Shown: positions 4,192 through 61,818 of the stretch, one piece after another
Numbering within the stretch: position 1 is the stretch's first letter
How the letters are laid out: the number at the start of each line of letters is the position of its first letter
Origin: a phage
DNA length: 64,000 bases
Assembly: GCA_026188615.1 (NCBI GenBank)
Contig: GCA_026188615.1_4525.1
Direction: 5' to 3' (one strand)
Notes under the pieces: generated by a model
Databases searched by the model: none
Told to the model about the DNA's origin: nothing
What the model saw: only the letters and a program-made list of their open reading frames with translations
Position numbers and translations under genes: made by a program

Positions 4192-4221
4192 ACTATACTA
4201 TAGTCCATCTATAATGTAAAC
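4192..4221 (-). promoter_or_regulatory. T4-early-type promoter (GTTTAC -35, TATAGT -10)
   Basis: GTTTAC-N18-TATAGT upstream of sp; dyad symmetry flanks -10. Confidence 0.6.
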
Positions 4222-4225
4222 AAGT

Positions 4226-4474
4226 TTATTCTTTTTCGCGAATAATAATTACTTGTTGAGGCTGCTGAGCAGATTTCTTTTCGGCAACGATAGACCAAAT
4301 TAAAGTTCCAATCCAACCAATCATCGTCCAGTTAAAGAGTAAAGATACAAAGAAGATTGCTGTTGTGCTTTTTGTGCCACGAATAAGTGCGATTACCCAA
4401 GGCAACATGTAAATGATGATTGAACCAATACCTGCGATTAAAACTGCTACTGAACTAGCTACGAATAATTCCAT
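4226..4474 (-). CDS. small membrane protein
   Basis: 82-aa ORF, two hydrophobic helices, RBS AGAGGA; early promoter upstream. Confidence 0.55.
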   Translation of the reverse strand: MELFVASSVAVLIAGIGSIIIYMLPWVIALIRGTKSTTAIFFVSLLFNWTMIGWIGTLIWSIVAEKKSAQQPQQVIIIREKE

Positions 4475-4502
4475 GTTAATTTCCTCTTGATTTGTTATGT
4501 TT

Positions 4503-4532
4503 ATAATATCTTGTTTTAACTTTGGTGTAAAC
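4503..4532 (-). promoter_or_regulatory. early-type promoter
   Basis: GTTTAC-N18-TATTAT upstream of ORF 4226..4474. Confidence 0.5.
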
Positions 4533-4535
4533 CAA

Positions 4536-4904
4536 TTAATTAAATTTGTTTAAACGTTCAATACACTGGACGTAGTTATTCGCTATTTGTTTCTGGGTAG
4601 GCTCTTTACCAGTTGTTTCAACATAGCGAATGAATGCGATTTCAGTAGCCTGTAAGCAATGTTCTTTAACGCGTTGTTCTTTTGACAATGCTACAGTATC
4701 AGAGTCACGATAACGTTGAGCATGGGCATCAGCTTGAATCATTCGATTACCTACAGTAACCGGGTCTTCCACTTCAACTTTAGGTTGTTCATATTGTTTA
4801 ACATTCGGATTGTAAATCAGTTGGCCAACGTTATTAGGGATAAAGCCATGGGCACCACATCCGGTTAATCCGAATACCATTGCTAAAGCGATTAATTTTT
4901 TCAT
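4536..4904 (-). CDS. putative lipoprotein
   Basis: Internal start MKKLIALAMVFGLTGC (lipobox) with GAGGA RBS; track ORF 4536..4964 extends upstream. Confidence 0.55.
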   Translation of the reverse strand: MKKLIALAMVFGLTGCGAHGFIPNNVGQLIYNPNVKQYEQPKVEVEDPVTVGNRMIQADAHAQRYRDSDTVALSKEQRVKEHCLQATEIAFIRYVETTGKEPTQKQIANNYVQCIERLNKFN

Positions 4905-4964
4905 TTCAATTTCCTCTGTAGTTGATAGAAAGATAGTAACACAGTATGTGGTGCTTGTAAACAA

Positions 4965-5177
4965 CTATTTTAAACTTTTGCGAAATTTGCGTTTTTCTTG
5001 ACGAATCTGTCGTTTAGTCGGACGTACAGCAAATTTAACGAAGTCCACTTTACCGTGTGGAAACTTTTCAGATGCTTCACAGTCCATCATTAGTTCCCAT
5101 CCTTCCAGAATAAGAGCTTTCCATTGTGTAGTTGATGCAAATTCGTATGTTGATGGTTTAAACACAGTTGAATACAT
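4965..5177 (-). CDS. hypothetical small basic protein (C-terminal VRPTKRQ motif)
   Basis: Start moved to internal Met so that it abuts the dmd stop; paralog of 33408..33578. Confidence 0.45.
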   Translation of the reverse strand: MYSTVFKPSTYEFASTTQWKALILEGWELMMDCEASEKFPHGKVDFVKFAVRPTKRQIRQEKRKFRKSLK

Positions 5178-5178
5178 A

Positions 5179-5373
5179 TTATCCTCTGAAATCAGCTTCG
5201 AAAACTTTCTCGTCATTAACAAATGCTTTAACTAATGCTTTATTAATTTCAGCAAACTGCATGGTAGCCCACATGATATGCTCTTTGTCTGTTATATCCA
5301 TGCGGATTTCTTTGGTAAACATACTACCATTTTCAAACCAACCAATAAAAACTACTTTAGCAAACTCTTCCAT
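5179..5373 (-). CDS. dmd: antitoxin Dmd (61.5)
   Basis: 64 aa; KVVFxGWFxNxSMFTKEI...WATxQxAEINKALVKAF matches T4 Dmd. Confidence 0.85.
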   Translation of the reverse strand: MEEFAKVVFIGWFENGSMFTKEIRMDITDKEHIMWATMQFAEINKALVKAFVNDEKVFEADFRG

Positions 5374-5691
5374 TTAGATTTCCTCACAGAACGCCCATTC
5401 AGCATGATAAACTGTAGCGCCTTTAGTATCATTCATTTGAACTACATCTACCGGAGAAATTACTCGATAGAGTCGTGGTTCACCTCCATAAGAGCGTGCA
5501 GCTCGTCCTGCATAAATCTTTGCTAAACCGATATCTTCAGTAAAGAATACACGATCCAAGTTTTTCTTACGTCCAGTTTCAGACAGAACTCCTGTTTCCT
5601 CAGGAGGACAAAGCATGTTTTCGATGTTAGCTGAACTACTTGAACCGTGATAAAAAATCTTAAATTCTGCTTTACAATCGATGGTTTTCAT
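5374..5691 (-). CDS. hypothetical protein
   Basis: 105-aa ORF with RBS. Confidence 0.5.
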   Translation of the reverse strand: MKTIDCKAEFKIFYHGSSSSANIENMLCPPEETGVLSETGRKKNLDRVFFTEDIGLAKIYAGRAARSYGGEPRLYRVISPVDVVQMNDTKGATVYHAEWAFCEEI

Positions 5692-5717
5692 TTTGTTCTC
5701 CAGTAGTTGATAGGTCT

Positions 5718-5746
5718 ATAATAACACAACTACTGGAGAAGTAAAC
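5718..5746 (-). promoter_or_regulatory. early-type promoter
   Basis: GTTTAC-N17-TATTAT upstream of ORF 5374..5691. Confidence 0.55.
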
Positions 5747-6121
5747 TTAAAAACGTAATTTAGATATATCTGCGTTGATTTCGTTTTGGTTCGCGTCATA
5801 TGCAATTAAACGAACCGCTTTAGACGGGTCATTCAATGCATAGAAATGATGGAACATTGCTCGAACGATATCACCATTTACGAGTTCTACCTGGATAGGA
5901 GAACCTTTTTCGAGTTGGAAATGTTCATAAGCTTTGATGGTTCGTAGATAATCAAGTTTTTGATTTCCAGCTCCAACTATTTGTACGATACGTTTGCCCA
6001 TGTTTTCCATACGAGATACAATAGTTTTAGGAGCAAGAATAACGTAGGTTGCCAGCGGAGAAACTACTTCAACAGTTGTGTTTTCGGTGATTGCAGTAAA
6101 AATTGCTTGAGACATATTCAT
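5747..6121 (-). CDS. hypothetical protein
   Basis: 124-aa ORF, RBS AGAGGA, early promoter and terminator upstream. Confidence 0.55.
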   Translation of the reverse strand: MNMSQAIFTAITENTTVEVVSPLATYVILAPKTIVSRMENMGKRIVQIVGAGNQKLDYLRTIKAYEHFQLEKGSPIQVELVNGDIVRAMFHHFYALNDPSKAVRLIAYDANQNEINADISKLRF

Positions 6122-6150
6122 AATGTTTTCCTCTTGGTTGGTGTAAGTAC

Positions 6151-6180
6151 ATCATATCATGCCTAGAGGAAGATGTAAAC
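6151..6180 (-). promoter_or_regulatory. early-type promoter
   Basis: GTTTAC-N18-TATGAT upstream of ORF 5747..6121. Confidence 0.5.
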
Positions 6181-6183
6181 CCC

Positions 6184-6209
6184 AAAAGGAGACCGAAGTC
6201 TCCTTTTTT
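6184..6209 (-). terminator. rho-independent terminator hairpin (bidirectional)
   Basis: GGAGAC-CGAA-GTCTCC flanked by A4 and T6, just after gene 41 stop. Confidence 0.7.
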
Positions 6210-6210
6210 A

Positions 6211-7653: not shown

Positions 7654-7662
7654 GATAACTCC

Positions 7663-8004
7663 TTAAAAGAATTTAAATTTTTTCTTGGTCCGTTCATTAA
7701 AAGCTTGTTGTACTTGCATTGTAATACATTTTTCAACATGTGGTGCAAGTTCTGCTTTTCTGTCCTGGTCAAGAACTGCAAAGTCCATTACGATTTTACC
7801 ATCAACCCAGTCTAGTTTTGTAATATAGACTATATGATGAGAACCATCTTCAAGCGTAATCAGAATCTCTTGAATGACATTTTCCATTGCTGAACGGATA
7901 ATTTTAAGAGATTCATTAAACACTCGTTCTTTGCGAATGTCTTCCCCTTCCGAAGAAGGGGATTCATCAACGATTTCTAGATTTAAATCATCGAGATTAT
8001 TCAT
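7663..8004 (-). CDS. 40: gp40-like protein (head vertex assembly chaperone position)
   Basis: Internal ATG MNNLDDLNLEIVDESPSSEGE immediately after uvsX stop; ~114 aa as T4 gp40; synteny. Confidence 0.6.
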   Translation of the reverse strand: MNNLDDLNLEIVDESPSSEGEDIRKERVFNESLKIIRSAMENVIQEILITLEDGSHHIVYITKLDWVDGKIVMDFAVLDQDRKAELAPHVEKCITMQVQQAFNERTKKKFKFF

Positions 8005-28359: not shown

Positions 28360-28653
28360 TCAACTGTAACGATAACATTCGTTAGCTTTACGTTTGGCTT
28401 CAGTATGAGAAGTATTATAATCATAATCTTCTTTACTGTAAACATCTTTTTTCAACTTACGAACTTCTTTGCGGAGTTGTCGATTCATTTCGTTCTTGAC
28501 TTCAGAATCAACGCCTTTCATACGTTTCCATTTATCTGAGCGGAAGATGTTTTCAACCATGTCTTTGTGGCTAACACCGTCAGGAGCTTTACGCTTACCA
28601 AAATAGTCGTAATCGCGAACTTTCAAATCTTTACGACGATATGTTTTACCCAT
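28360..28653 (-). CDS. hypothetical basic protein
   Basis: Internal start MGKTYRRKDLK; Lys/Arg-rich. Confidence 0.45.
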   Translation of the reverse strand: MGKTYRRKDLKVRDYDYFGKRKAPDGVSHKDMVENIFRSDKWKRMKGVDSEVKNEMNRQLRKEVRKLKKDVYSKEDYDYNTSHTEAKRKANECYRYS

Positions 28654-28909: not shown

Positions 28910-29250
28910 GGCTTAATTTCCTTCGCAACTGAACAGAAGATACTACGGTCACAAAGCATTTCACCAATTTCTGGATATTTGATTGAACGGTACCAAACAT
29001 CCAGGCTTGAAACTCTGGTTATCTGTATGGCATTACCATTGACAGAATAGTACTGGTCAACCTTAATTTCTTTATCTTCAATTGTCATTTTATTTTCCTC
29101 TATAGTAGATGGTTTAATCTTAACACATTTATTGAGGATGTAAACTGTTTTATGAAAATATTTTTTGATTTGAGAGGGGCACAAGGAGATAGTGAAGTGA
29201 AGATTCCAATGGATTATATTAGAAATGAGATAAAGAAGACCAGGCGGCAC
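28906..29250 (-). CDS. hypothetical protein
   Basis: 114-aa ORF, start uncertain. Confidence 0.4.
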   Translation of the reverse strand: MPPGLLYLISNIIHWNLHFTISLCPSQIKKYFHKTVYILNKCVKIKPSTIEENKMTIEDKEIKVDQYYSVNGNAIQITRVSSLDVWYRSIKYPEIGEMLCDRSIFCSVAKEIKP

Positions 29251-29254
29251 CTGG

Positions 29255-29545
29255 TCAATCTTCTATGATATCAGAGTCATATCCTAATGAAATCAAGGAC
29301 TTTTTAAACTCTGCAATATTCTTTTGTTTCTTATCATTTAAAAATATGACAGGATAACGAATATTAAGTGAAGTGAATCCTGCACGTTTAGCAAGAGATA
29401 CGATTAAAGGACGGTCATATTCAATCTTACCATTATTAGTGAGGACTTTATAAAATGTATAAGGAGCATTGAGCTCCTTTAAAAGTTTTGTAACAGTATA
29501 ACATCCTGGACAACGTCCAACTTCTTCAGGGATGCCATAAATTTC
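29255..29545 (-). CDS. glutaredoxin/NrdH-like redoxin (start uncertain)
   Basis: CPGCYTV CxxC motif in thioredoxin-fold context IYGIPEEVGRCPGCY...; upstream part of track ORF overlaps 29544..29861. Confidence 0.45.
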   Translation of the reverse strand, partial: EIYGIPEEVGRCPGCYTVTKLLKELNAPYTFYKVLTNNGKIEYDRPLIVSLAKRAGFTSLNIRYPVIFLNDKKQKNIAEFKKSLISLGYDSDIIED

Positions 29546-30190: not shown

Positions 30191-30661
30191 TTAATCATGT
30201 TTCCACACCCCATCGGTATTTGACCAAAGTCGCTGATTATCTGATCCTCGCCACAGCTTTTTGGTCGGAAGATTTTTCTCATACTTCCCATCAATAATAA
30301 CATCAACATATTTAAGCATTTCTAGCTGTTTAATATCTTCAAACTTATATCCTGTCCACAACCAAATGCTTTTATTGGGATAAAGATTTTTAATAGTTTG
30401 AACCACAGAGTGAATCACATCTCTGTTATCAGGATAGAGAGGGTCACCTCCGGTTATAGTCAATCCTTCTATATAATCATTATTCAAACATTCAATTAAT
30501 TGTTCTAGTGTTTCACCAGTGAATGGAATACCATTTCTAGCATTCCATGTTGATTTATTATAACACCCTTCGCATTTATGCAAACAACCTGTAACGAAAA
30601 GAACGACCCTGCAACCAGGGCCATTCACAAAATCGCAAGGATAAAATCTATCATAATTCAT
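30191..30661 (-). CDS. nrdG: anaerobic ribonucleotide reductase activating protein NrdG (radical SAM)
   Basis: 156 aa; CxxxCxxC motif CLHKCEGC; size and position as T4 NrdG. Confidence 0.9.
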   Translation of the reverse strand: MNYDRFYPCDFVNGPGCRVVLFVTGCLHKCEGCYNKSTWNARNGIPFTGETLEQLIECLNNDYIEGLTITGGDPLYPDNRDVIHSVVQTIKNLYPNKSIWLWTGYKFEDIKQLEMLKYVDVIIDGKYEKNLPTKKLWRGSDNQRLWSNTDGVWKHD

Positions 30662-33578: not shown

Positions 33579-33706
33579 AATAATCTCTTCCCATTTCCAT
33601 ATCAATTAATTCATTTATTGAAGGTTCATCATAACATGGTTCTTCGTCGTTGTAAACCGTTTCGACGTCTGGCTCGACAGTCTCCCATCGAGCAGAATAC
33701 CACGGT

Positions 33707-34761: not shown

Positions 34762-35066
34762 TATAATGTTCTCTCAAATTTGTGGAAGCATTTACGGCAT
34801 TTCAATTTCAAGTTATCACTGGTCCAGTTAACCAGTTGGACTTGGATAGTTCCACATTCCGGACACGGATGTTTTGCTGCCGATTTGGCAGCATTTTCAC
34901 GTCGTTCAACCATTTTCATTATTTCGTTCCATGCTGGAGGAACGAACTCTTCTTCACCATGAATTTTATCTCGCTGAACAAATTCAATCTTTGAACTATC
35001 ATCAATAAACTTAACTAAGCCATGATTAGTGCTCATATCAATATCCTCTAGAAGACGTAGGTTCAT
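34761..35066 (-). CDS. zinc-ribbon protein
   Basis: 101 aa; CPECG...CRKC. Confidence 0.5.
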   Translation of the reverse strand: MNLRLLEDIDMSTNHGLVKFIDDSSKIEFVQRDKIHGEEEFVPPAWNEIMKMVERRENAAKSAAKHPCPECGTIQVQLVNWTSDNLKLKCRKCFHKFERTL

Positions 35067-36013
35067 TATAACACCTCAATGGCATTTCGTAAACCATCCG
35101 CTTTCGCGTTCAGAGCTTTTAACGATTTAGTCTGTTCTTTAATCTGGGCTTCGACTTCTTTAAGACGAGATTTGAGATATTCACGTTCTTCGCTCAAGTT
35201 GTCAACTTTTTCTACTTTAGGTTCTTTAATAGTCTTAAGTTTATACTCGTTAGGGTTCTTCAACTTAATTTGAATGCGAGAACTGAATAACATCGAACCG
35301 TTATCTTCGGTTTCGTCATACATTTCTACTACGTCCATGATTCTTAACATCATGCGAAGTTTATAAGACAGCGAACGAACGGTTTTATTGTGCTTCTTAA
35401 TTTCTTCAGCTTTCATGGTGCCGAGATTACGTGAGTAGTAATAAGGAACCTGGATATCAATTGACAATGATGCGTTACCATTACCTGTTGGTTTGAATAC
35501 TGCAGTAACCCAATCTTTAACATGAACTTTATTTGTACGATCATCGCCACCAGTGAATAATTTACGAGAATGTTTAAAAAGCATATTCACTTGGTTATTG
35601 AATTCACAAGCAAATTTATCAGCAAATTTAGTTTCAGGAATGGTAGATAACCAATCAGCCAAATGAGTCTTTTTAACATCATTAACAATAGTGAATTCAA
35701 CCAAATCGGTTTTAGATGTCACAGATTTAATAAAGCTCGGCTTCATAAAGTTTTTAATGTTATCGCGAGCTACAGTAGAAGATAATAAACGAGAACGTTT
35801 GAACCATTGAAGCAGCGTCCCTAATGAATGAGAATATGCATTTTGAGTATCTTTACAGATATGATTTTCTTGGCCTGTGTATGTAAGAAAATCACGAAGA
35901 ATACTATAAACCACACCTTTATGTGGAACATCAGTCCAAGCACCAGTAGCACGTTGAGCGTGAGCGTTAGCGATAAGACCGGCAAAGTATTCAATGTAAT
36001 GTGAACGTGTCAT
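35066..36013 (-). CDS. hypothetical protein with C-terminal coiled coil
   Basis: 315-aa ORF; strong early promoter upstream. Confidence 0.6.
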   Translation of the reverse strand: MTRSHYIEYFAGLIANAHAQRATGAWTDVPHKGVVYSILRDFLTYTGQENHICKDTQNAYSHSLGTLLQWFKRSRLLSSTVARDNIKNFMKPSFIKSVTSKTDLVEFTIVNDVKKTHLADWLSTIPETKFADKFACEFNNQVNMLFKHSRKLFTGGDDRTNKVHVKDWVTAVFKPTGNGNASLSIDIQVPYYYSRNLGTMKAEEIKKHNKTVRSLSYKLRMMLRIMDVVEMYDETEDNGSMLFSSRIQIKLKNPNEYKLKTIKEPKVEKVDNLSEEREYLKSRLKEVEAQIKEQTKSLKALNAKADGLRNAIEVL

Positions 36014-38673: not shown

Positions 38674-38700
38674 GTTTTACCTCCAGTAGTTGATAGGTCT

Positions 38701-38730
38701 ATAGTAACATGTCCATAGACCTGTGTAAAC
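38701..38730 (-). promoter_or_regulatory. early-type promoter
   Basis: GTTTAC-N18-TACTAT upstream of ORF 38149..38673. Confidence 0.5.
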
Positions 38731-42858: not shown

Positions 42859-42886
42859 TTTGTTCTCCGTTCGTTTTGGTAGGACT

Positions 42887-42916
42887 ACTATAACATAATC
42901 CTACCAAGATGTAAAC
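42887..42916 (-). promoter_or_regulatory. early-type promoter
   Basis: GTTTAC-N18-TATAGT with flanking dyad TAGGACT/AGTCCTA. Confidence 0.55.
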
Positions 42917-43336: not shown

Positions 43337-43365
43337 ACTATAACACAACCTGCGGAGAAGTAAAC
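43337..43365 (-). promoter_or_regulatory. early-type promoter
   Basis: GTTTAC-N17-TATAGT immediately after terminator 43376..43404. Confidence 0.55.
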
Positions 43366-43375
43366 TGATAGATAC

Positions 43376-43404
43376 AAAAAAGCCCCAACCATAAGGAAGG
43401 GGCT
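43376..43404 (-). terminator. rho-independent terminator
   Basis: AGCCCC...GGGGCT stem with internal GNRA-like loop, then T5 on minus strand; after rI. Confidence 0.65.
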
Positions 43405-46296: not shown

Positions 46297-46755
46297 CTAG
46301 ATTTTAATCACTGCTTTAGAAGCTTTTCCTGGTAGTCGTTTATTGTTAATAATAGCCATTCTGCATTGAAGAGTCTTCATTTTGAATGCCGGATTTTCGC
46401 GACAAACTGTAAGTCCTAACCAAAGATTTCCGTCAGTTATTTCTAAACGGCCCGGGCGATATTCGACACCTTCGTCAAAATCTTCATCAACATCTGGACG
46501 TGCCGGCATTGATAAAAATTCTGCAACTTCTTTAACATGATTTTTTACTTTATGAAATAATTCAAAAACGTAATTCTCATCTATTTCTCTCTGGATGGCA
46601 CGATCTAAGAGATGTTGAGAATACTTGATATGAAAGCCTGGTAGTCCAAGAGACTTTGCAGCATCTTTTATACTGGCATTTATTTTGCGGAACTCCGTTT
46701 CAAAGATTCGACGGAGTTTATTGCGGCGGATAAAAACGTCTGAATTGATAGTCAT
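46297..46755 (-). CDS. regB: RegB endoribonuclease-like
   Basis: 152 aa; size and position as T4 regB; sequence similarity recalled only weakly. Confidence 0.6.
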   Translation of the reverse strand: MTINSDVFIRRNKLRRIFETEFRKINASIKDAAKSLGLPGFHIKYSQHLLDRAIQREIDENYVFELFHKVKNHVKEVAEFLSMPARPDVDEDFDEGVEYRPGRLEITDGNLWLGLTVCRENPAFKMKTLQCRMAIINNKRLPGKASKAVIKI

Positions 46756-46783
46756 TTTGATTTCTCCTCTAGTTGACAGGTCT

Positions 46784-46812
46784 ATAGTAACACAACTAGA
46801 GGAGAAGTAAAC
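46784..46812 (-). promoter_or_regulatory. early-type promoter upstream of regB
   Basis: GTTTAC-N17-TACTAT. Confidence 0.5.
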
Positions 46813-48725: not shown

Positions 48726-48806
48726 TTAGTTTCTCTTAAGGTTTGGGCCATTCCGTGGCACATGAATTGTCCATTTCTGTATTTACCCCTCCAAGTAATT
48801 ATGAAT

Positions 48807-48836
48807 ATACTATCACAATTCTAGGAGAAAGTAAAC
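48807..48836 (-). promoter_or_regulatory. early-type promoter
   Basis: GTTTAC-N18-TAGTAT upstream of ORF 48186..48725. Confidence 0.45.
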
Positions 48837-49474: not shown

Positions 49475-49888
49475 TTAGTAAATTGATTTACCATAGTATT
49501 TGTACCAAGTCGGACGTTGAGCAATTTTTTCATCTAAGCGTGCTTGACTTATCGCAATGGACTCTTCGGACGGGACGTAATTATTACGAAATTCGGCAGG
49601 GATGTCGGAAATATCCTGGACAGTCGTGTCCTTGATTTTGAAACCACGTTTCAAGCATTCAGCGATTAGCTCGATTTGTCGTAAACGTAAAAATTCGAGT
49701 TTGTCGTAAAAGAATGTTACGTGACCTGTGCCTAAGATAAATGTTGGAGAGATTTTAAAATCCTTTACACGTTTACCGTTTTGAACATGTTTACGGACTG
49801 CACCGAATACACGAGGTAATTCACGATACTCAGCCATAAGATGTTGGTCGGCCAGTTCAGAAACAAGTGTTAAATTGATACGGGTCAT
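49475..49888 (-). CDS. denV: endonuclease V (pyrimidine dimer DNA glycosylase) DenV
   Basis: Internal [37 protein letters not shown]... matches T4 EndoV. Confidence 0.93.
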
Positions 49889-49915
49889 AATTTCCTCCAA
49901 GTAGTTGATAGATGT

Positions 49916-49945
49916 ATAGTATCAAAGTCCTTGGAGGAAGTAAAC
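49916..49945 (-). promoter_or_regulatory. early-type promoter upstream of denV
   Basis: GTTTAC-N18-TACTAT. Confidence 0.5.
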
Positions 49946-52913: not shown

Positions 52914-52941
52914 AATATTCTCCTCATGTTTAATAGGACTA

Positions 52942-52971
52942 CTATAACATAGTCCTATAATTGTGTAAACA
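52942..52971 (-). promoter_or_regulatory. early-type promoter
   Basis: GTTTAC-N18-TATAGT, dyad ATAGGACT/AGTCCTAT around -10. Confidence 0.55.
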
Positions 52972-54219: not shown

Positions 54220-54235
54220 TTGTTTTGATAGGACT

Positions 54236-54265
54236 ACTATAACATAGCCCTATCTTGTTGTAAAC
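54236..54265 (-). promoter_or_regulatory. early-type promoter
   Basis: GTTTAC-N18-TATAGT. Confidence 0.55.
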
Positions 54266-56378: not shown

Positions 56379-56400
56379 AAAAGGAGGACCGGAGTCCTCC
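56379..56400 (-). terminator. hairpin with short U tract (weak terminator or attenuator)
   Basis: GGAGGAC-CGGA-GTCCTCC then TTTT on minus strand. Confidence 0.45.
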
Positions 56401-57002: not shown

Positions 57003-57043
57003 ATTATTACCTTTCAATTGGTGGTTTATTATCCAACGAGAGC

Positions 57044-57072
57044 ATTATACTCTGCTCTCAAGAGTTTGTAAA
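57044..57072 (-). promoter_or_regulatory. sigma70-type promoter (TTTACA-N17-TATAAT)
   Basis: Upstream of PspA-like gene; near-duplicate of 27689..27717. Confidence 0.55.
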
Positions 57073-57300
57073 TTATTTTTTAATCAAATTGACATAAAAC
57101 TTGGCGTCTTCGGGGTGCATGCCTTCGCAGTATTCTTCAACCATGAACTTCTTAACAGCTTCATAAGGACCGCTCAGATTAAGCTCAGTTGTCCAAAACT
57201 TGGAATCTTGGACTGAATCGATACGAACTTCAGGGTGACGGTTGCGAATAACTTCTTCAGTGTATTCATAATCAACAACATCAATACTAACTGTAGCCAT
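57073..57300 (-). CDS. hypothetical protein
   Basis: 75-aa ORF. Confidence 0.5.
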   Translation of the reverse strand: MATVSIDVVDYEYTEEVIRNRHPEVRIDSVQDSKFWTTELNLSGPYEAVKKFMVEEYCEGMHPEDAKFYVNLIKK

Positions 57301-57542: not shown

Positions 57543-57571
57543 ATAGTATCACCATCCTTGGTGCTTGTACA
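57543..57571 (-). promoter_or_regulatory. early-type promoter
   Basis: TGTACA-N17-TACTAT upstream of small ORF 57348..57512. Confidence 0.4.
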
Positions 57572-57580
57572 TCGTTATTT

Positions 57581-57886: not shown

Positions 57887-57914
57887 AATATTTTCCTCAT
57901 GTTTTTATAGGTCT

Positions 57915-57943
57915 ATAGTAACACATCTAGGGAAGAAGTAAAC
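57915..57943 (-). promoter_or_regulatory. early-type promoter
   Basis: GTTTAC-N17-TACTAT just after terminator 57974..58001. Confidence 0.5.
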
Positions 57944-57973
57944 ATCTTTATGAAATATTTTTATGCCCTAGAC

Positions 57974-58001
57974 ACCAAAAAGCCCCAACCTTTCGGAAGG
58001 G
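57974..58001 (-). terminator. rho-independent terminator
   Basis: AGCCCC...GGGGCT then T5; near-copy of terminator at 43376..43404; downstream of RNA region. Confidence 0.65.
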
Positions 58002-58052
58002 GCTATGCCTTGCGGCAACCTTGTCGGGGTTCCACCTGCTAAGGCAAGTGTT

Positions 58053-58144
58053 TGTACGAAACGCCGGGATTTGAACCCGGTTATCAAGTAGTTGACGCTA
58101 CTCAATATTTTTAAAAGGCCATATCTCGACCATATCCGAACGTT
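58053..58144 (-). ncRNA. tRNA-like structured RNA element
   Basis: T-arm CCGGG-TTCAAAT-CCCGG followed by 7-nt strand pairing with CGGAACG 77 nt upstream; no D or anticodon arm could be folded. Confidence 0.3.
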
Positions 58145-58315
58145 CCGTCAAAAACGCTACTCGGCTTACGGCAAAGATATTTCCTCGAATCGATAATTCG
58201 GTGCGCCGTTTCTGCTGTGATGTAAGGGGATATTAACAAATCGTAAAGATTTATTAAGACCAGTCCTTACTCAGGGAACATCAGTCCGACGACTTACCGG
58301 TAGCGACCCGGCTTC

Positions 58316-58711
58316 TTATTTTGGCATATCATCAATTTGCTCTCGACGCCGACGCCATAGATTAATCGCTTCATTAACACATTCGGCGTTTGGTATATGA
58401 CGGCAATAATATAATGATTCGCGTTTCTGGAACCGATGTTGCAATGGGATTTCGTTTAAAAGGTCTTTACGGTCAAAGTATTCAAAACTAGTTAACCCGG
58501 AACGGTTTTTAATGAACTTCCAATGACCGAATTCATTTTGAACATAGATGTAATCGGCATGCTGATACAGCGAATTAATCAATCGATGAGAAATAACTGT
58601 ATCATATTCGTTAAAATAAAACGTTAAATCATGAACTACCAGATAAATATTGCCTTTCATATTTTCCTCACTTAAAGTTGGTGCCTCTAGAAAGATTTGA
58701 ACTCTCACCAT
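58316..58711 (-). CDS. hypothetical protein (start uncertain)
   Basis: 131-aa ORF; likely begins at internal MKGNIYLVVHDL. Confidence 0.45.
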   Translation of the reverse strand: MVRVQIFLEAPTLSEENMKGNIYLVVHDLTFYFNEYDTVISHRLINSLYQHADYIYVQNEFGHWKFIKNRSGLTSFEYFDRKDLLNEIPLQHRFQKRESLYYCRHIPNAECVNEAINLWRRRREQIDDMPK

Positions 58712-58739
58712 TAACCTTAGAATGATTATATGCTATCCA

Positions 58740-59405
58740 TTACACTATAGAGGCAATTAAATTATTTACAATATCTTCTTTATAAACTTCAGCATAATGA
58801 AGTTCATATATTTCCCATCCTAATGATTTTATAATATCATGGCGTTCTTTATAATAAGGGGCCAAAATCTTTTTCTTAGGATTGGAGTAATGTTGGTTTC
58901 CATTAACTTCAATAATAATCTTTTTATCTATTAAAGCAATATCCGTGCAATACGCTCGGTTTTTAACCGGTTGGTATTCTTCAATAAATGAAATTCCATT
59001 TTCTATTAATTTAGATTTCAAAAATTCACAAGGCACAGATTTAAATTTTGTATTTTTCTTCCAAGGATGTTTATCGGGGTTTTCATTCAACCATTTTTTC
59101 CGAGCATTAGATATTTTTATTCTAGCTTCCTCAGAGTGTTCTCTACCTAATGAAGCGGCTGACAATTTTTGTCTAGTCTCTTCCGAAATTACTACAGGAA
59201 CACCAGTCTTTTTAGATACAACATACTGGTTTAAATTACCTGAAGCTATACGTGCTTTATTCATTGCTGCAATGGCTGATTTAGAACTTTCTTTATACAA
59301 TTCCAATTTAGGGTTGGATTTACACCATCTAGTGTGGTTAGCCATCCATCCTTTAGGTTTATTAGAAATATCAAATTCCATATTACAATGTTTACAAATG
59401 CTCAT
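58740..59405 (-). CDS. putative endonuclease (Zn finger, NUMOD3-like helix, C-terminal Vsr/DUF559-like PD-(D/E)xK domain)
   Basis: Track ORF starts on TTG; ATG MSICKHCN...; C-terminal IIEVNGNQHY...ERHDIIKSLGWEIYEL; sits beside the tRNA genes. Confidence 0.5.
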   Translation of the reverse strand: MSICKHCNMEFDISNKPKGWMANHTRWCKSNPKLELYKESSKSAIAAMNKARIASGNLNQYVVSKKTGVPVVISEETRQKLSAASLGREHSEEARIKISNARKKWLNENPDKHPWKKNTKFKSVPCEFLKSKLIENGISFIEEYQPVKNRAYCTDIALIDKKIIIEVNGNQHYSNPKKKILAPYYKERHDIIKSLGWEIYELHYAEVYKEDIVNNLIASIV

Positions 59406-59415
59406 TACCAATTAT

Positions 59416-59434
59416 CTCCTATAAAATATAGGAG
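59416..59434 (-). promoter_or_regulatory. hairpin sequestering the Shine-Dalgarno of the endonuclease gene
   Basis: Perfect 8-bp inverted repeat CTCCTATA/TATAGGAG; the AGGAG RBS lies in the 3' arm, ~10 nt upstream of ATG at 59405. Confidence 0.45.
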
Positions 59435-59479
59435 TATTTATTATTTGGATAGAGCACTTAATTTACTTCGTTTAAATTA

Positions 59480-59551
59480 CTGGCGCACTTGGACTCGAAC
59501 CAAGATAAAGAAGTTAACAGCTCCCCGTAATAACCTTTATACGATGCACCA
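59480..59551 (-). tRNA. tRNA-Asn (anticodon GUU)
   Basis: Cloverleaf folded by hand: U1-A71 7-bp acceptor, D loop with GG, anticodon loop CUGUUAA, T arm CTTGG-TTCGAGT-CCAAG; no encoded CCA. Confidence 0.7.
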
Positions 59552-59557
59552 TTTGTT

Positions 59558-59632
59558 TGGTGACCCTGGCTGGTTTCGATCCAGCTACCTATCAGTTATG
59601 AGCTGACAGCTCTCCCATTGAGCTACAGGGCC
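59558..59632 (-). tRNA. tRNA with CAU anticodon (Met or Ile2-type), CCA encoded
   Basis: Acceptor GGCCCTG/CAGGGTC, D stem GCTC/GAGC, anticodon loop CUCAUAA, T arm GCTGG-ATCGAAA-CCAGC, 3' ACCA. Confidence 0.7.
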
Positions 59633-59694
59633 TAAATAACTTTCTATTATGAAAGGCACTTTAGAGTACCTTTGGTAATAGAGGGTATGAATTA

Positions 59695-59719
59695 ATAATA
59701 ACACATAATTCTTAAAGCA
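59695..59719 (-). promoter_or_regulatory. middle-promoter-like element (TGCTTTA-N12-TATTAT) upstream of tRNA genes
   Basis: MotA box consensus with canonical spacing, ~60 nt upstream of tRNA 5' end. Confidence 0.45.
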
Positions 59720-60227
59720 AATCAATCATTTTAACAGTTGGCAAAACGATTTCTTCTTCAATATAAGCAAATTCGACACGTTCAACTACACGCAAGAAAT
59801 CATAATCATAGTATTCAGAAGCATAGCCAAGAATATCAATAAGACCTTCTGATACCTCATCACCTTTCACAAAGAACAGGTCGAATACACGGGCTTCGTC
59901 TTCTTCAGATTTATAGCCAAGGTCGACTTCAATATCAAAGACCTTTTTAATGAATTCTGGATAAAGCTGGTCTGAGAACAGTCCTTCAACCAAGTATTCA
60001 TAGATTAAAAGCGAGCAATCACTGAATGGTGTATTACCACAGTAACGTTCAGCTTTAGTACTGGAATGACGACTCTTAAATTTCTTCAAGAGATATTTAA
60101 ACTGTTGGAGCTCATGCTCTTCCACACCAAATAATGTTTTGGTTTTATAGTTGTCGCCGTCATTTTCCCAAGTAGTGACATCAATTACGTAACCCTTAGG
60201 AATTGTACTGCCTAAACAAATATTCAT
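59712..60227 (-). CDS. hypothetical protein
   Basis: 171-aa ORF. Confidence 0.55.
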   Translation of the reverse strand: MNICLGSTIPKGYVIDVTTWENDGDNYKTKTLFGVEEHELQQFKYLLKKFKSRHSSTKAERYCGNTPFSDCSLLIYEYLVEGLFSDQLYPEFIKKVFDIEVDLGYKSEEDEARVFDLFFVKGDEVSEGLIDILGYASEYYDYDFLRVVERVEFAYIEEEIVLPTVKMIDLL

Positions 60228-60231
60228 TTAC

Positions 60232-60522
60232 TCACCGTACCATATTAATGTAATTATATTCAATGCAACGTAATTTCAAAGGATTCTTGAAAATATCATA
60301 TTCAAGAGGGCCTTTTTCTGTTTCAATAAAGAAATCAAAGTTAACTGTGTTAAATTTATCGTCTTCACAGAGTAATTTAACTTGCGAAGATGAACGGTCG
60401 ATATAAACCTTTTCAACCTCAAAGTTAGTCAGAATACCGTAGTCATTAACTAGTGCTTTAGCTGCACGTTGGTCGCTTTCATATCCATTCTCGACAGATT
60501 TTACTTTAGCATAAAGAATCAT
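60232..60522 (-). CDS. hypothetical protein
   Basis: 96-aa ORF. Confidence 0.5.
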   Translation of the reverse strand: MILYAKVKSVENGYESDQRAAKALVNDYGILTNFEVEKVYIDRSSSQVKLLCEDDKFNTVNFDFFIETEKGPLEYDIFKNPLKLRCIEYNYINMVR

Positions 60523-60899
60523 GAATGTTCCACCATTTCAAAGGTATGAGCATCAACAATATGATACCAGTCAAAATTTTCTTCTGCGTTTTTATAAATT
60601 TCGCGAAGAGCCTCAACAGTTTTTCCTGTAGCAACAAGGTCGTCAATACCACCAAGAGGATAACAGTCATAACCAGCAAACAGAAGGAAATTAATAGTTT
60701 CTGTAGGTTCTGGATGCAGAACACCGTTATCGTCTACCACTTCAAAGAAAGTGTAAGAAGGAGTACAAGTTTTAATCCAAGCCCATGCTTGAGCTGCTGA
60801 ATCAAATGGTCTGCGTATCAAACGACAATCAGGGTCTTTAGAAGGATTTGCTTCAAAATCAGCATATACATGATATTTCATTTTACTCACCTTTTGCAA
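60519..60899 (-). CDS. hypothetical protein
   Basis: 126-aa ORF. Confidence 0.5.
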   Translation of the reverse strand: MQKVSKMKYHVYADFEANPSKDPDCRLIRRPFDSAAQAWAWIKTCTPSYTFFEVVDDNGVLHPEPTETINFLLFAGYDCYPLGGIDDLVATGKTVEALREIYKNAEENFDWYHIVDAHTFEMVEHS

Positions 60900-61089
60900 T
60901 TTTATCCATAACGATAGCGATTAAACTGATTAGAAATGCTACTACCAATGAGATAGAATTTTCAGTTGTTGTCAGTAGTCCGCAAATGAATCCTACAAAC
61001 ATCGAAAAACTAAAAGCCATTGAAGCAATTACTACAGCAACATTACGAATCAGTTCAGCGCGTTTCATTTTATTTCTCCATTTACTCAT
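60883..61089 (-). CDS. small membrane protein
   Basis: 68-aa ORF, two TM segments. Confidence 0.5.
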   Translation of the reverse strand: MSKWRNKMKRAELIRNVAVVIASMAFSFSMFVGFICGLLTTTENSISLVVAFLISLIAIVMDKIAKGE

Positions 61090-61105
61090 TTGATTTGATA
61101 GGACT

Positions 61106-61135
61106 ACTATAACATATCCCTATAGGCTTGTATAC
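61106..61135 (-). promoter_or_regulatory. early-type promoter
   Basis: GTATAC-N18-TATAGT. Confidence 0.45.
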
Positions 61136-61137
61136 CT

Positions 61138-61401
61138 TTATTTCAAATATATTGCGTATTTTTTATAGCCACCAGGCTCGTGTCGAAGACCTTTATCATT
61201 CGCAAAACGTTGAATGTTATTGAACTGGTTTTCATCAAGTTCGGATGTGTCAAATATAAAAAAGTTTCGTTTGTTACCAAGCGTGATATGCGGAGTTAAG
61301 TCAATGTTATACAAATTAAGAATATCAGCAATAACCTGATTAACCGCTTTGTTAATTTTCACGCCAGACGATTCTGAGATGAATTCATTGAAAGTTTTCA
61401 T
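61138..61401 (-). CDS. internal protein with capsid targeting sequence
   Basis: CTS MKTFNEFISES at internal Met of track ORF 61138..61413. Confidence 0.6.
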   Translation of the reverse strand: MKTFNEFISESSGVKINKAVNQVIADILNLYNIDLTPHITLGNKRNFFIFDTSELDENQFNNIQRFANDKGLRHEPGGYKKYAIYLK

Positions 61402-61433
61402 TTTAGGTTCCATTTGGTTGTTTTGATAGGACT

Positions 61434-61463
61434 ACTATAGCATAGTCCTATCGTGTTTTAAAC
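61434..61463 (-). promoter_or_regulatory. early-type promoter upstream of internal protein gene
   Basis: GTTTAA-N18-TATAGT. Confidence 0.5.
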
Positions 61464-61466
61464 TAC

Positions 61467-61754
61467 TTACAGAAGAGTTTTTGCAATAATTTTAAGCTGA
61501 GCTACAGAAATATGCTTAGCTTTAAACAGTGCAGTCTCTTCAGCCGGAGAGATAACAATAGTAGCGCCATCTTTCTTAGCAGACCATCCATCCCCTAAGT
61601 AAACAGTACCTTTTACTTCTTCGCCGTCAACCAGACTAATCATTGGTTTACCCTCACGTCCTTTATTTGCTTTAATAACTTCAGAAGTAAGGGTTGCTTC
61701 GGTCAGAGTAGAAACGTTAGCAACAGGTGATATAAATTCTTTATAGGTTTTCAT
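61467..61754 (-). CDS. internal protein with capsid targeting sequence (IPI-like position)
   Basis: 95 aa; N-terminal MKTYKEFIS; adjacent to 57B as ipI is in T4. Confidence 0.65.
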   Translation of the reverse strand: MKTYKEFISPVANVSTLTEATLTSEVIKANKGREGKPMISLVDGEEVKGTVYLGDGWSAKKDGATIVISPAEETALFKAKHISVAQLKIIAKTLL

Positions 61755-61788
61755 TTTATTTCCTTGAGGCTGTTTATTTGATAGGATG

Positions 61789-61818
61789 ATAGTATCACAC
61801 CATCTTCCTTATGTAAAC
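61789..61818 (-). promoter_or_regulatory. early-type promoter upstream of internal protein gene
   Basis: GTTTAC-N18-TACTAT. Confidence 0.5.

Follow-up and report, generated by a model that had tools for sequence, protein, structure and literature searches.

Why do the short intervals between the genes of a phage carry one promoter-like pattern again and again, and why can so many of the copies fold back on themselves? The question arises between positions 4192 and 61818 of a phage DNA of 64,000 nucleotides (assembly GCA_026188615.1, contig GCA_026188615.1_4525.1), referred to here, at its full length, as the window. A first-pass annotation had proposed that selection for a hairpin is superimposed on the promoters.

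The recurrent module is an early promoter

Mosigvirus genomes match the window at 95-97% identity, and in their annotation the same sites are labelled T4-type early promoters; judged by its sequence, the window belongs to a Mosigvirus, one of the RB69-like T4-type phages. Between 4192 and 61818 there are 18 occurrences of the pattern GTTTAC-N16-19-TAYWRT, each of them on the minus strand, which is the gene strand; 0.47 are expected by chance, and the maximum in 100 shuffles was 4. A relaxed pattern, in which one mismatch is allowed in the -35 and a Shine-Dalgarno (SD) sequence plus ATG is required downstream, gives 28 promoter copies, about 24 of them intergenic; coding sequence contains or overlaps the ones at 28443, 30585, 33657 and 35094. 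The earlier count of more than 20 intergenic copies, and their reading as early promoters, are thus borne out. Its parts are a UP region rich in A/T, the -35 GTTTAC, a spacer of 17-18 bp, TGn and the -10 TAnnnT, and by these the module is recognizable as the known T4-type sigma-70 early promoter, of which 57 have been predicted in RB69 (PMC1524935). A median of only 2-3 nt separates the stop codon of the upstream gene from the -35, so that the promoter takes up practically the whole intergenic region.

Dyads in the window take two forms

An ungapped helix of score at least 18, meaning 7-8 bp or more, is present in 10 of the 28 window copies; among chimeras made within the window the share is 7.7%, and among shuffles 1.2%. 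A further 3-4 copies have helices that are weaker or interrupted. The share of dyads is therefore about 36-50%, and the inverted repeat is not found "in most copies", as had been claimed. The self-duplex energy of the window copies averages -11.2 kcal/mol, compared with -7.7 in chimeras (permutation p = 5e-5), and the fold z-scores of dyad-bearing promoters run from -3 to -6.4. The repeats quoted earlier are all in place: ATAGGACT/AGTCCTAT at 52933-52958, 61425-61452 and 54227-54254, CAGTAGTTG/CAACTACTG at 5696-5740, and AGGTCTAT/ATAGACCT at 38695-38722.

The dyads fall into two classes. In class A, which makes up more than half of them, arms of 7-12 bp adjoin and bracket the -10 element around a loop of about 8 nt, and predicted SD accessibility is unchanged by the helix. 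The class A promoters of the window are as follows (coordinates, strand, elements, fold):

61425..61463 (-), class A promoter: arms GATAGGACTA 61452-61443 and TAGTCCTATC 61434-61425; -10 TATAGT 61439-61434 in the loop; predicted start ~61427, within the 3' arm; -16.6 kcal/mol, z = -6.4
54227..54265 (-), class A promoter: arms GATAGGGCTA 54254-54245 and TAGTCCTATC 54236-54227, the sole mismatch being a G.U on the sense strand; -16.0 kcal/mol, z = -5.3
52933..52970 (-), class A promoter: arms ATAGGACTA 52958-52950 and TAGTCCTAT 52941-52933; -12.7 kcal/mol, z = -3.8
42876..42916 (-), class A promoter of a mobD.2-like gene: arms TTGGTAGGATTA 42907-42896 and TAGTCCTACCAA 42887-42876, one U.G pair; -18.3 kcal/mol, z = -4.6
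38695..38730 (-), class A promoter of the nrdC.8 orthologue, register shifted: arms AGGTCTAT 38722-38715 and ATAGACCT 38702-38695, loop 12 nt; -13.5 kcal/mol, z = -3.3
57038..57073 (-), class A promoter with unique arms, e.6 orthologue: GAGAGCA 57059-57053 and TGCTCTC 57044-57038; -12.6 kcal/mol, z = -3.4
4187..4221 (-), weak class A promoter: GGACTA 4206-4201 with TAGTCC 4192-4187, extended across a bulge; -11.1 kcal/mol, z = -2.95

The hairpin of OL960576 that is orthologous to 42876..42916 carries an annotation as a predicted "terminator". The T4 counterpart of the nrdC.8 promoter differs in having an anti-SD helix instead (GTTCCTC.../...GGAGGAAC).

In class B, an anti-SD arm just 3' of the -35 pairs with the ribosome-binding site that serves the downstream gene. 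The long repeats (CAGTAGTTG/CAACTACTG and similar) sit in helices of 10-14 bp whose 3' arm is that gene's SD, a pairing overlooked in the first-pass annotation. For the class B and mixed promoters, the predicted probability that the SD is unpaired is given for read-through RNA and then for the promoter's own transcript:

5689..5746 (-), class B early promoter: -35 GTTTAC 5746-5741, -10 TATTAT 5723-5718, predicted start ~5711, ATG 5691; 5' arm TTCTCCAGTAGTTG 5740-5727 with CAACTACTGGAGAA 5709-5696, containing the SD 5701-5698; -21.1 kcal/mol, z = -5.3; 0.00 and 0.80
46753..46812 (-), class B early promoter, regB orthologue: -35 46812-46807, -10 TACTAT 46789-46784, predicted start ~46777, ATG 46755; TTCTCCTCTAGTTG 46806-46793 with CAACTAGAGGAGAA 46775-46762 (SD 46769-46766); -21.6 kcal/mol, z = -4.9; 0.00 and 0.35
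49886..49945 (-), class B early promoter, denV orthologue: -10 TACTAT 49921-49916, ATG 49888; TTCCTCCAAG 49939-49930 with CTTGGAGGAA 49901-49892 (SD 49898-49895); -19.2 kcal/mol, z = -5.8; 0.00 and 0.57
29086..29145 (-), weaker class B promoter: -10 TAAGAT 29122-29117; TCCTCAATA 29138-29130 with TATAGAGGA 29104-29096, one A.A mismatch; score 14; 0.03 and 0.67
48772..48836 (-), mixed promoter, its downstream gene lying in the denV/internal-protein region: AATTGTGA 48820-48813 with TCATAATT 48804-48797, one G.U; score 13; spacer CTCC faces GGAGG at about 48789; 0.07 and 0.28

T4 has versions of the 48772..48836 helix that measure 14 bp at the ipII promoter and 8 bp at the ipIII promoter. About 14 window copies are without a significant dyad; these, and the copies preceded by a canonical terminator, are:

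6119..6203 (-), canonical terminator then early promoter: GGAGACTTCGGTCTCC plus T-run 6203-6184, -35 6180-6175; interrupted anti-SD helix TTCCTCTAGG 6171-6162 with CCAAGAGGAA 6137-6128, one A.A mismatch; no predicted difference in SD accessibility (0.48 in read-through RNA, 0.44 in own transcript)
57915..58004 (-), canonical terminator (AGCCCCTTCCGAAAGGTTGGGGCT plus T-run, ~58004-57976) then early promoter (57943-57915) without significant dyad
43337..43404 (-), canonical terminator (~43404-43376), near-identical to that of 57915..58004, then early promoter (43365-43337); the sole pairing possible is a 6-bp TTCTCC/GGAGAA core over a 34-nt loop
61789..61818 (-), early promoter with an interrupted helix only (AGGAAGAT/ATCATCCT)
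Other copies without significant dyad, -35 at 61135, 57359, 55153, 49204, 40206, 36071, 35094, 33657, 30585, 28443, 4962 and 4532

Pairing is conserved while sequence changes

The symmetry could in principle have no function and simply follow from the promoter consensus and from promoter cassettes having been duplicated. In the window there is something to be said for this: the -10-bracketing class numbers 5 copies against a permutation maximum of 5 and, because its members share near-identical ATAGGACT-type arms, the window alone cannot separate it from shared consensus; moreover, the 3' arm AGTCCTATCAA is consensus in most copies, with or without a 5' arm. The statement that symmetry is kept while sequence varies is therefore correct in that arms differ between copies, but for this class its proof comes from T4 and relatives. 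In a set of 285 unique promoters drawn from the window, from T4 and from 54 related loci, 38.9% have a helix of score at least 18, as against 3.6% of chimeras and 1.3% of shuffles, a 10- to 30-fold deficit in the controls; about 60% of promoters are without a dyad. There are 74 distinct arm pairs, with loops of 6-34 nt, and the loop-8 register is occupied in 44 sequences where 5.9 are expected.

Orthologous promoters bear unrelated arm sequences and, among true orthologues, compensatory changes. In the alignment of mobD.2-like promoter orthologues, 96.4% of cells are paired (slid controls, 24-64%), and 3 pairs have changed on both sides. Pairing at the regB promoter is kept in at least 5 lineages with differing inner-arm sequences; denV orthologues have at least 5 different complementary arm sets; those of e.6 have GTGTAGGAG/CTCCTACAC or GAGGACA/TGTCCTC in place of the window arms; and a compensatory T-A to C-G change separates two of the related loci, L038 and L040. 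In some relatives the 5' arm lies in the -10 and discriminator rather than in the spacer. The covariation check thus finds symmetry beyond promoter consensus across the relatives, a functionless origin is strongly disfavoured and scarcely credible, and the comparison supports the proposal that a hairpin has been selected for on top of the early promoters.

The predicted start splits the hairpin

An exact anti-SD 4-mer is found in the early part of the spacer in 57 of the 285 promoters (4.8 expected), and the helix reaches at least 4 bp past the SD core in 44%, compared with 1.9% of chimeras. The ribosome-binding site is a partner in some 40% of helices; this favours a gating of translation over RNA processing or termination, two of the roles suggested earlier. 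GGAG is present in 39/39 class B promoters and in 46-64% of those in other classes, an enrichment that is partly detection bias because GC-rich cores score higher.

Placing the start 7 nt past the -10, we find that the 5' arm lies upstream of it in 88 of 95 SD-sequestering helices, straddles it in 6 and is wholly within the promoter's own 5' UTR in 1, although short 5' UTRs leave little room for a fully transcribed 5' arm, which accounts for part of this rarity. With the predicted start between the arms, only read-through RNA, whose existence we infer from the absence of terminators, would be able to fold the hairpin. In the five class B and mixed promoters of the window, the predicted unpaired probability of the SD is 0.00-0.07 in read-through RNA and 0.28-0.80 in the own transcript.

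Like this geometry, the relation to upstream terminators supports an effect on read-through transcripts, as had been suggested. Dyads occur in 3% of promoters with a canonical terminator upstream (n = 31) and in 43% of those without (n = 254; p = 2.5e-6); by sequence clusters, the counts are 1/20 and 51/134 (p = 0.002), and with a looser terminator detector the shares are 19% and 43% (p = 0.003). That the hairpins are themselves classical terminators we reject as unlikely: a U-tract follows 0/111 of them, and their tails are A-rich, with an average of 1.2-2.0 T in 8 nt.

Alternative explanations

In the PeSL cassettes (Arbiol 2010, Comeau 2014), stem-loops are held to terminate or attenuate upstream transcription, the cassette serving chiefly for recombination by which small genes are shuffled. 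Their layout (AT-rich with the upstream stop, early promoter, stem-loop between -35 and -10 or overlapping the -10, SD, ATG) is that of the window module (PMC2839356), one RB49 stem-loop cut lacZ expression as strongly as rrnB T1, two orthologous hairpins in OL960576 are called "terminators" by prediction programs, promoter 43365 resembles a chimera of two cassettes, and a stand-in for a terminator would be expected to avoid canonical terminators, as these hairpins do. Yet besides the missing U-tracts, the stems here, at 45% GC, are AU-rich, whereas those of RB49 are polyG/polyC; arm diversity within one genome lowers homology and so would not help recombination; and termination gives no reason for about 40% of 3' arms to coincide exactly with the SD and to have covarying extensions. 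We regard this account as unlikely, if the strongest of the alternatives. Somewhat less probable still is translational coupling, in which the class B SD would stay closed until an upstream ribosome melts the base of the stem, fixing a ratio between genes in read-through RNA. A terminating ribosome covers an estimated 6-9 nt of mRNA past the stop codon; it may thus open the stem, and apparent silencing could be coupling. The closeness of the upstream stop to the -35 is in its favour, as are the class B 5' arm, whose start lies at a median distance of 9 nt (interquartile range 7-11) from the stop, at the edge of that footprint, and the pairing of the SD with the outermost part of the stem, the first to open. 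However, the gap is mostly slightly beyond the estimated reach of the ribosomal helicase, stems of 10-14 bp would quickly re-form, and class A arms begin at a median of 12 nt past the stop and leave the SD uninvolved.

A protein-bound or cruciform DNA palindrome might instead regulate the promoter itself, for example in the shut-off of early promoters minutes after infection, which is still without a known mechanism (PMC3014915, PMC2988021). Class A elements do form near-perfect palindromes centred on the -10, in T4 with arms up to 14 bp and an 8-bp centre, and the evidence for the sense strand as the one acted upon is weak: in-helix transition mismatches are G.U in 15 cases and A.C in 9 (binomial p = 0.15), with the arms considered alone, stability is greater for the sense strand in 14 cases and for the antisense in 7 (p = 0.09), and a larger 53:14 bias is partly due to a U.G closing pair from conserved promoter bases. 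Against this, the 74 arm pairs, the range of loops and the varying register within one genome exclude a single sequence-specific binder, so that the protein-binding dyad of the first-pass annotation is unlikely; only about 40% of early promoters have a dyad; an intrinsic promoter function should ignore an upstream terminator, on which dyad presence depends; and class B arms are tied to the SD, an RNA feature. We consider a DNA-level element very improbable.

Proposed role of split hairpins

We favour, with moderate confidence, the view that these are RNA hairpins that tell read-through transcripts from promoter-proximal ones. In about 40% of promoters the spacer bears the 5' arm and the 3' arm lies at or past the predicted transcription start. 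A transcript from the promoter itself would be without the 5' arm and remain open, while read-through RNA from an upstream promoter would contain both arms and fold. In class B, the 3' arm is the SD of the downstream gene (always GGAG, the RegB target), sometimes plus the AUG; in read-through RNA the gene would be silenced, or translated only if a ribosome terminating upstream melts the stem base, and the RNA would be shielded from RegB, whereas from its own promoter the gene would be fully translatable. Protection of GGAG from RegB by RNA structure is known (PMC3014915). In class A, whose role is uncertain, the hairpin encloses the -10 sequence and leaves the SD free. The most likely role, and this is a guess, is that of an intercistronic stem standing in for a terminator hairpin, as a 3' barrier to exonucleases or an attenuator of the upstream message.

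Nearest among known systems are the PeSL cassettes and, at T4 late promoters, the hairpins in which ribosome-binding sites are sequestered. In T4 e, soc, 49 and I-TevI, hairpins hide the ribosome-binding site in long transcripts and an internal promoter relieves this (PMC3014915, PMC2988022). Split hairpins at early promoters are a variant of these known regulatory devices of the T4 family.

The Recurrent Module as a T4-Type Early Promoter

The exact pattern GTTTAC-N16-19-TAYWRT has 18 matches in the window, all on the minus strand, the first at 4192-4221 and the last at 61789-61818, against a mean of 0.47 and a maximum of 4 in shuffles of the window. When one mismatch in the -35 is allowed and a Shine-Dalgarno (SD) sequence and ATG are demanded downstream, 28 promoter copies are found, about 24 of them intergenic; each is named here by the window coordinate at which its -35 begins on the minus strand. 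The copies are enriched over chance and lie on the gene strand, with a spacer of 17-18 bp and a -10 of the form TAnnnT. Most have tgt or tga just ahead of the -10, and the sequence upstream of the -35 is an A/T-rich UP region of the aaaatattttcataaaaca type. An SD with its start codon, belonging to an early-region gene, follows 20-45 nt downstream, and the genes so placed include orthologues of regB, denV, nrdC.8, mobD.2 and e.6 together with internal-protein-like genes. Generic sigma-70 scans gave no enrichment (67 sites vs. 67.0 expected, and 73 vs. 69.9 in a second scan), the phage-specific GTTTAC form alone being enriched; many of the sites in these scans carried a TG flag.

The window (GC 36-38%, almost every gene on the minus strand) spans the early region from about T4 gene 43 through nrdC, tk, regB, denV, the internal-protein genes and the tRNA cluster, and Mosigvirus genomes, which are RB69-like and T4-type (moskry, vB_EcoM_SA79RD), are 95-97% identical to it. 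For RB69, 57 early promoters have been predicted (Nolan 2006, PMC1524935), and in SA79RD the same sites are annotated as T4-type early promoters. This promoter type has a GTTTAC -35, a TGn, a TAnnnT -10 and an UP element (Miller 2003 consensus, to the extent that it is quoted in OL960576; review, PMC2988021). Hexamers, spacing, extended -10, A/T-rich upstream sequence, C-rich -3 to -1 region, strand and placement before early genes are all shared, and we see no difference at the promoter level. Judged by its sequence, the recurrent module is a T4-type early promoter, and the first-pass annotation was right to see recurrent early promoters here. The published early-promoter descriptions searched mention no superimposed dyad, whether as hairpin, palindrome or symmetry.

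Between the end of the upstream ORF's stop codon and the -35 there is a median gap of 2-3 nt, which makes the promoter the whole intergenic space. At about -6 to +6, a start region of the form a-g-(t/a)-CCTATCAA-(a/c) is conserved in most copies, with or without the 5′ arm of an inverted repeat (e.g., 54225-54235, 52931-52940 and 38690-38700). Its T4 counterpart is cTATCAACTAC; initiation or escape, a 5′-UTR function and shared ancestry are candidate reasons for the conservation. The following promoter matches lie in or overlap coding sequence, and none has a dyad:

28414-28443, promoter match in or overlapping coding sequence
33628-33657, promoter match in or overlapping coding sequence
30557-30585, promoter match in or overlapping coding sequence
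35065-35094, promoter match in or overlapping coding sequence

The -10 of promoter 35094 overlaps the final bases of the upstream ORF. Orthologous sites are found for 28443 in T4, and for 30585 and 35094 in relatives.

Inverted Repeats over the Promoters

In the window, the energy of pairing between a promoter spacer and its own downstream sequence averages -11.2 kcal/mol, as compared with -7.7 when the spacer is set against the downstream sequences of other copies (permutation p = 5e-5). Using an ungapped helix score in which G.T and A.C are penalised equally, with a cut-off of at least 18 (7-8 bp or longer), helices are found in 10/28 window promoters vs. 7.7% of within-window chimeras, in which the spacer of one promoter is set against the downstream sequence of another, and 1.2% of shuffles. 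Ten window hairpins fold with z-scores of -2.95 to -6.4. The inverted repeat described in the first-pass annotation is upheld by the permutation test; its presence in most copies is not, the dyad being clear in about 36% and reaching at most 50% when weak cases are counted. Rfam covariance models at the gathering score found no family at the dyad sites, and the sole matches in the window were three tRNAs at the position of the T4 tRNA cluster:

58682-58754, minus strand, tRNA gene
59480-59551, minus strand, tRNA gene
59561-59632, minus strand, tRNA gene

The dyads are of two kinds, which we call class A and class B:

61463, 54265, 52970, 42916, 57073 and 38730, minus strand, class A
4221, minus strand, weak class A
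5746, 46812 and 49945, minus strand, class B
29145, 48836, 6180 and 43365, minus strand, weaker class B

In class A, arms of 7-12 bp abut the -10, and the loop, mostly of 8 nt, contains TGnTATAg; the 3′ arm covers about -7 to +3/+5 and leaves the SD free. Within the window this tight class has almost one arm sequence, of the ATAGGACT type, so the window alone cannot separate it from a shared consensus. In class B, the 5′ arm opens with TTCTCC or TTCCTCC, 0-2 nt after the -35. Its partner is the SD of the gene downstream, which contains GGAG, and the stem runs inward to 10-14 bp. The SD is GGAG in 39/39 class B cases vs. 46-64% elsewhere, a comparison in which part of the excess comes from detection bias, GC-rich cores scoring higher.

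Start sites were predicted from sequence, and read-through, that is, RNA arriving from an upstream promoter, is inferred. The start was placed 7 nt beyond the -10, at the A of ATCAA, a position in keeping with the C-rich -3 to -1 region noted for RB69 (PMC1524935). In class B it falls between the two arms; in class A the 3′ arm contains it. Given this position, a promoter's own transcript could not fold the hairpin, and only RNA from upstream could. Of 95 SD-sequestering helices, 88 have the 5′ arm upstream of the predicted start and 6 have it across the start; in the remaining one the arm is wholly within the transcript. The predicted probability that the SD is unpaired at 5746, 46812, 49945, 29145 and 48836 is 0.00-0.07 in read-through RNA vs. 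0.28-0.80 in the own transcript; for class A, no predicted difference in SD accessibility between the two RNAs was found.

Conservation and Covariation in Relatives

From the window, T4 and 54 IMG/VR loci taken around regB, an e.6-region gene and nrdC.8, 285 unique promoters were gathered, orthologous promoters among them being not fully independent samples. Helices scoring at least 18 occur in 38.9% of the 285 vs. 3.6% of chimeras and 1.3% of shuffles, with 74 distinct arm pairs, which bears out the earlier remark that the symmetry is kept while the repeat sequence varies. In a fixed register with a loop of 8, at least 7 consecutive pairs are present in 44 sequences vs. 5.9 expected (maximum 16). 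The early part of the spacer contains an exact anti-SD 4-mer in 57/285 promoters vs. 4.8 expected, and the helix reaches at least 4 bp past the SD core in 44% vs. 1.9% of chimeras. T4 itself (NC_000866) has dyads at early promoters too, with unrelated arm sequences:

T4, before ipI, dyad GATGAGGTA/TACCTCATC
T4, before ipII, 14-bp TCCTAGAATTGTGA palindrome
T4, before mobD.2, dyad TTGACAAGATT
T4, before denV, regB and nrdC.8, anti-SD helices

The covariation check proposed in the first-pass annotation was run on orthologues, and its outcome favours a conserved helix. Six orthologues of the mobD.2-like promoter, aligned without gaps, have 96.4% of cells paired, as against 24-64% in slid controls; three pairs are changed on both sides and a fourth via G.U. 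Locus L038 compared with L040 displays a T-A to C-G double change. At the regB promoter, the helix is kept in at least five lineages, with inner arms CTAGTTG/CAACTAG, CTTGACTG/CAGTTAAG, CTTTATG/CATAAAG, TGTAAG/CTTACA and TTTTAGT/ACTAAAA; one lineage has a class A stem, GGGCCAT/ATGGCCC, in place of the anti-SD helix, and the most distant one has a terminator upstream and no dyad. A MAFFT alignment of the regB-promoter orthologues was set aside for covariation because variable loop lengths left the SD arms unaligned, and anchor-based counts and the ungapped alignment were used instead. Orthologues of the denV promoter have at least five arm sets. In some relatives, the -10 hexamer and discriminator of this promoter are the 5′ arm and pair with SD and AUG (TATGATGTCCTCC/GGAGGACATCATG), so that promoter element and anti-translation arm are the same bases:

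L031:12551, denV promoter with the -10 as arm
L032:13895, denV promoter with the -10 as arm
L033:12571, denV promoter with the -10 as arm
L036:14187, denV promoter with the -10 as arm
L022-L024 (~14.5-15 kb), denV promoters with the -10 as arm

Dyads and Terminators

The first-pass annotation had suggested that the hairpin might terminate read-through transcripts. In the wider set of window, T4 and the 54 loci, a U-tract (5 or more T among the 8 nt beyond the stem) follows 0/111 hairpins, the tails being A-rich, and arm GC averages 45%; the GC-rich stem followed by a U-tract that defines an intrinsic terminator is not found at the dyads, which argues against intrinsic termination. Dyads and terminators have a stem-loop at a gene end in common, the dyad stems being lower in GC, and they are mutually exclusive, as if interchangeable. 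A dyad is present in 3% of 31 promoters lying behind a canonical GC-hairpin and T-run vs. 43% of 254 promoters without one (p = 2.5e-6); with one vote per sequence cluster, the figures are 1/20 vs. 51/134 (p = 0.002), and with a looser terminator detector 19% vs. 43% (p = 0.003). At the window promoters preceded by a terminator (57943, 43365 and 6180), the dyad is absent or degenerate. This exclusion, seen in sequence comparison, fits a role of the dyads as surrogate terminators.

Several hairpins of the region were scored as terminators or terminator-like:

~57976-58004, minus strand, canonical terminator, AGCCCCTTCC-loop-GGTTGGGGCT and T-run
~43376-43404, minus strand, near-identical canonical terminator
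61424-61453, plus strand, class A hairpin of promoter 61463, terminator-like on this strand only
56383-56400, GC-rich hairpin GGAGGACTCCGGTCCTCC, terminator-like on both strands
29238-29256, GC-rich hairpin GACCAGGTGCCGCCTGGTC, terminator-like on both strands

The near-identical pair lies directly upstream of early promoters 57943 and 43365, both without a good dyad, and these terminator-promoter pairs look like duplicated cassettes of the T4/PST type discussed below. The hairpin at 61424-61453 is the sole dyad called terminator-like in the scanned ranges; it owes the call to GTTTAAAACA, whose complement supplies a T-rich tail. A possible role of class A dyads as antisense terminators was dropped, as just this one site satisfies the plus-strand terminator rule. 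The hairpins at 56383-56400 and 29238-29256 may be bidirectional terminators within the early region. In OL960576 (locus L001), the orthologous counterparts of dyads 38730 and 42916, at 3689-3726 and 7867-7908, are annotated as "rho-independent terminator" (WebGeSTer/TransTermHP) without a U-tract, and at 7867-7908 the annotation has no promoter. Caution is warranted where such hairpins are labelled Rho-independent terminators without the defining U-tract.

RNA or DNA as the Level of Action

A dyad could also be a site for a protein, as the first-pass annotation had considered. An operator for a dimeric DNA-binding protein would be expected to have a conserved half-site at a fixed position and spacing; none was found, the 74 arm pairs having loops of 6-34 nt and registers that are shifted within one genome, which makes such a sequence-specific operator unlikely. 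Moreover, a dyad that matters only when RNA comes from upstream would act on or through read-through transcription, and a promoter-intrinsic DNA operator is hard to reconcile with the dependence on terminators. The strand comparisons point the same way, suggestively. Sense RNA folds better than antisense in 53/74 hairpins (53:14), a bias that is partly an artefact because conserved promoter bases form a U.G closing pair; when the arms alone are folded, the counts are 14 sense vs. 7 antisense (p = 0.09, not significant). Transition mismatches inside the helices are G.U in 15 cases vs. A.C in 9 (p = 0.15, not significant). The case that the dyads act as RNA rests mainly on SD involvement and terminator exclusion. 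We conclude that the dyads are probably RNA hairpins, split by the predicted start, which mark read-through RNA apart from promoter-proximal RNA.

Relation to Known Systems

Promoter-early stem-loop (PeSL) cassettes of T4-like phages (RB49/phi1, PMC2839356; PST/T4 and nt-1/KVP40, PMC4122927) share the composite intergenic layout: a stop codon in an AT-rich region, an early promoter, a stem-loop, an SD and ATG. The same arrangement is found in the window, with early promoter and stem-loop between the upstream stop and the downstream SD/ATG. PeSL cassettes are further marked by a concentration in hyperplastic regions beside indels and by recombination with one another into mini-circles. On this point the window offers anecdotal signs: small ORFs surround two groups of copies, at 4-6 kb and 42-62 kb, and 43365 looks chimeric. 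In RB49/phi1, the stem-loop is most often between -35 and -10 or over the -10, and its polyG/polyC stems have been read as terminators and recombination sites (PMC2839356), while the T4/PST stems lie upstream of the promoter (PMC4122927). In contrast, the stems described here are AU-rich, diverse, without a U-tract, split by the predicted start, and SD-paired in about 40%; translation is not discussed in the PeSL paper (PMC2839356). Weaker AT-rich PeSL-like versions have been noted at T-even internal-protein loci (Repoila 1994, as cited in PMC2839356). It is at these loci that such elements first came to notice in T-even phages. In the window, small genes behind early promoters with starts at 61754, ~61401 and 49141 (minus strand) begin MKTYKEFI, MKTFNEFI and MKTYQEFI, and resemble in this the N-terminal leader common to T4 internal proteins ipII and ipIII.

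A second parallel is offered by T4 e, soc, 49, I-TevI/II/III and segB, whose RBS-hiding hairpins are relieved by an internal promoter and have been described as a late-gene device (PMC3014915, PMC2988022). The logic is shared with the e/soc/49/I-TevI type: the SD, the AUG or both are paired in the long transcript, and translation is possible from a shorter RNA made by a promoter that lies within or across the 5′ arm. By predicted folding, five window promoters have the SD paired in the long transcript, and by geometry, with the predicted start, the promoter's transcript would be without the 5′ arm. In the present case, however, gating would lie with an early sigma-70 promoter, and the long and the short transcript are both early; no late or middle relieving promoter with a late gene was found, the promoters being early ones before early genes such as regB and denV. 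The effect would separate promoter-proximal from read-through expression, not early from late.

Escherichia coli sigma-54 promoters encode anti-SD insulation from read-through (Levy et al., bioRxiv 10.1101/086108), and short CT-rich promoter motifs that pair with the downstream SD are common to both systems, silencing read-through translation there and predicted to do so here. The sigma factor and organism differ, and the sigma-54 motifs are 3-5 nt without an extended helix, whereas the helices here are 8-17 bp with covarying extensions. In the elements described here, early promoters, AU-rich diverse stems without a U-tract, start-site split, frequent SD pairing and terminator exclusion come together, parts of which the older T4 literature may already describe. 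Our literature search found no usable genome-wide 5′- or 3′-end maps of T4 or RB69.

Proposed Role in Early Expression

We propose that class B gates translation, the GGAG SD being buried in read-through RNA. A buried SD should be closed both to the 30S subunit and to RegB, a GGAG-specific nuclease from which RNA structure protects its target (PMC3014915). A median of 9 nt separates the upstream stop codon from the class B stem. By an estimate of its mRNA footprint, a terminating ribosome may open this stem, and the outcome could then be translational coupling in place of full silencing. Class A, we infer, would most likely do the work of a terminator hairpin for the message upstream, either as a 3′ barrier or as an attenuator; cleavage by RegB and RNase E makes entry points for 3′ exonucleases (PMC3014915).

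Tentatively, and with confidence somewhat short of even, we suggest that T-even phages run a genome-wide, promoter-gated layer of early expression involving roughly 20-40% of early promoters. With an anti-SD arm, or another 5′ arm, set inside the promoter, the transcript of its own promoter would be the only RNA from which a small early gene is translated and on which RegB can reach it, while read-through copies would be silent or ribosome-coupled and RegB-resistant. Promoter-nested hairpins would replace terminators where genes abut, and immediate-early vs. delayed-early protein output would be set by RNA structure.

If this is true, a mechanism known for a few late genes would extend to a whole promoter class, and the promoters would be natural, compact "insulator promoters" for synthetic biology. 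Many T4-type early genes would not be simply co-expressed on long early transcripts; the promoter from which an RNA came would decide whether a gene on it is translated and whether RegB can inactivate it. This would help to explain how ordered protein output is obtained although strong promoters stand in tandem by the dozen and leave almost no space between genes.
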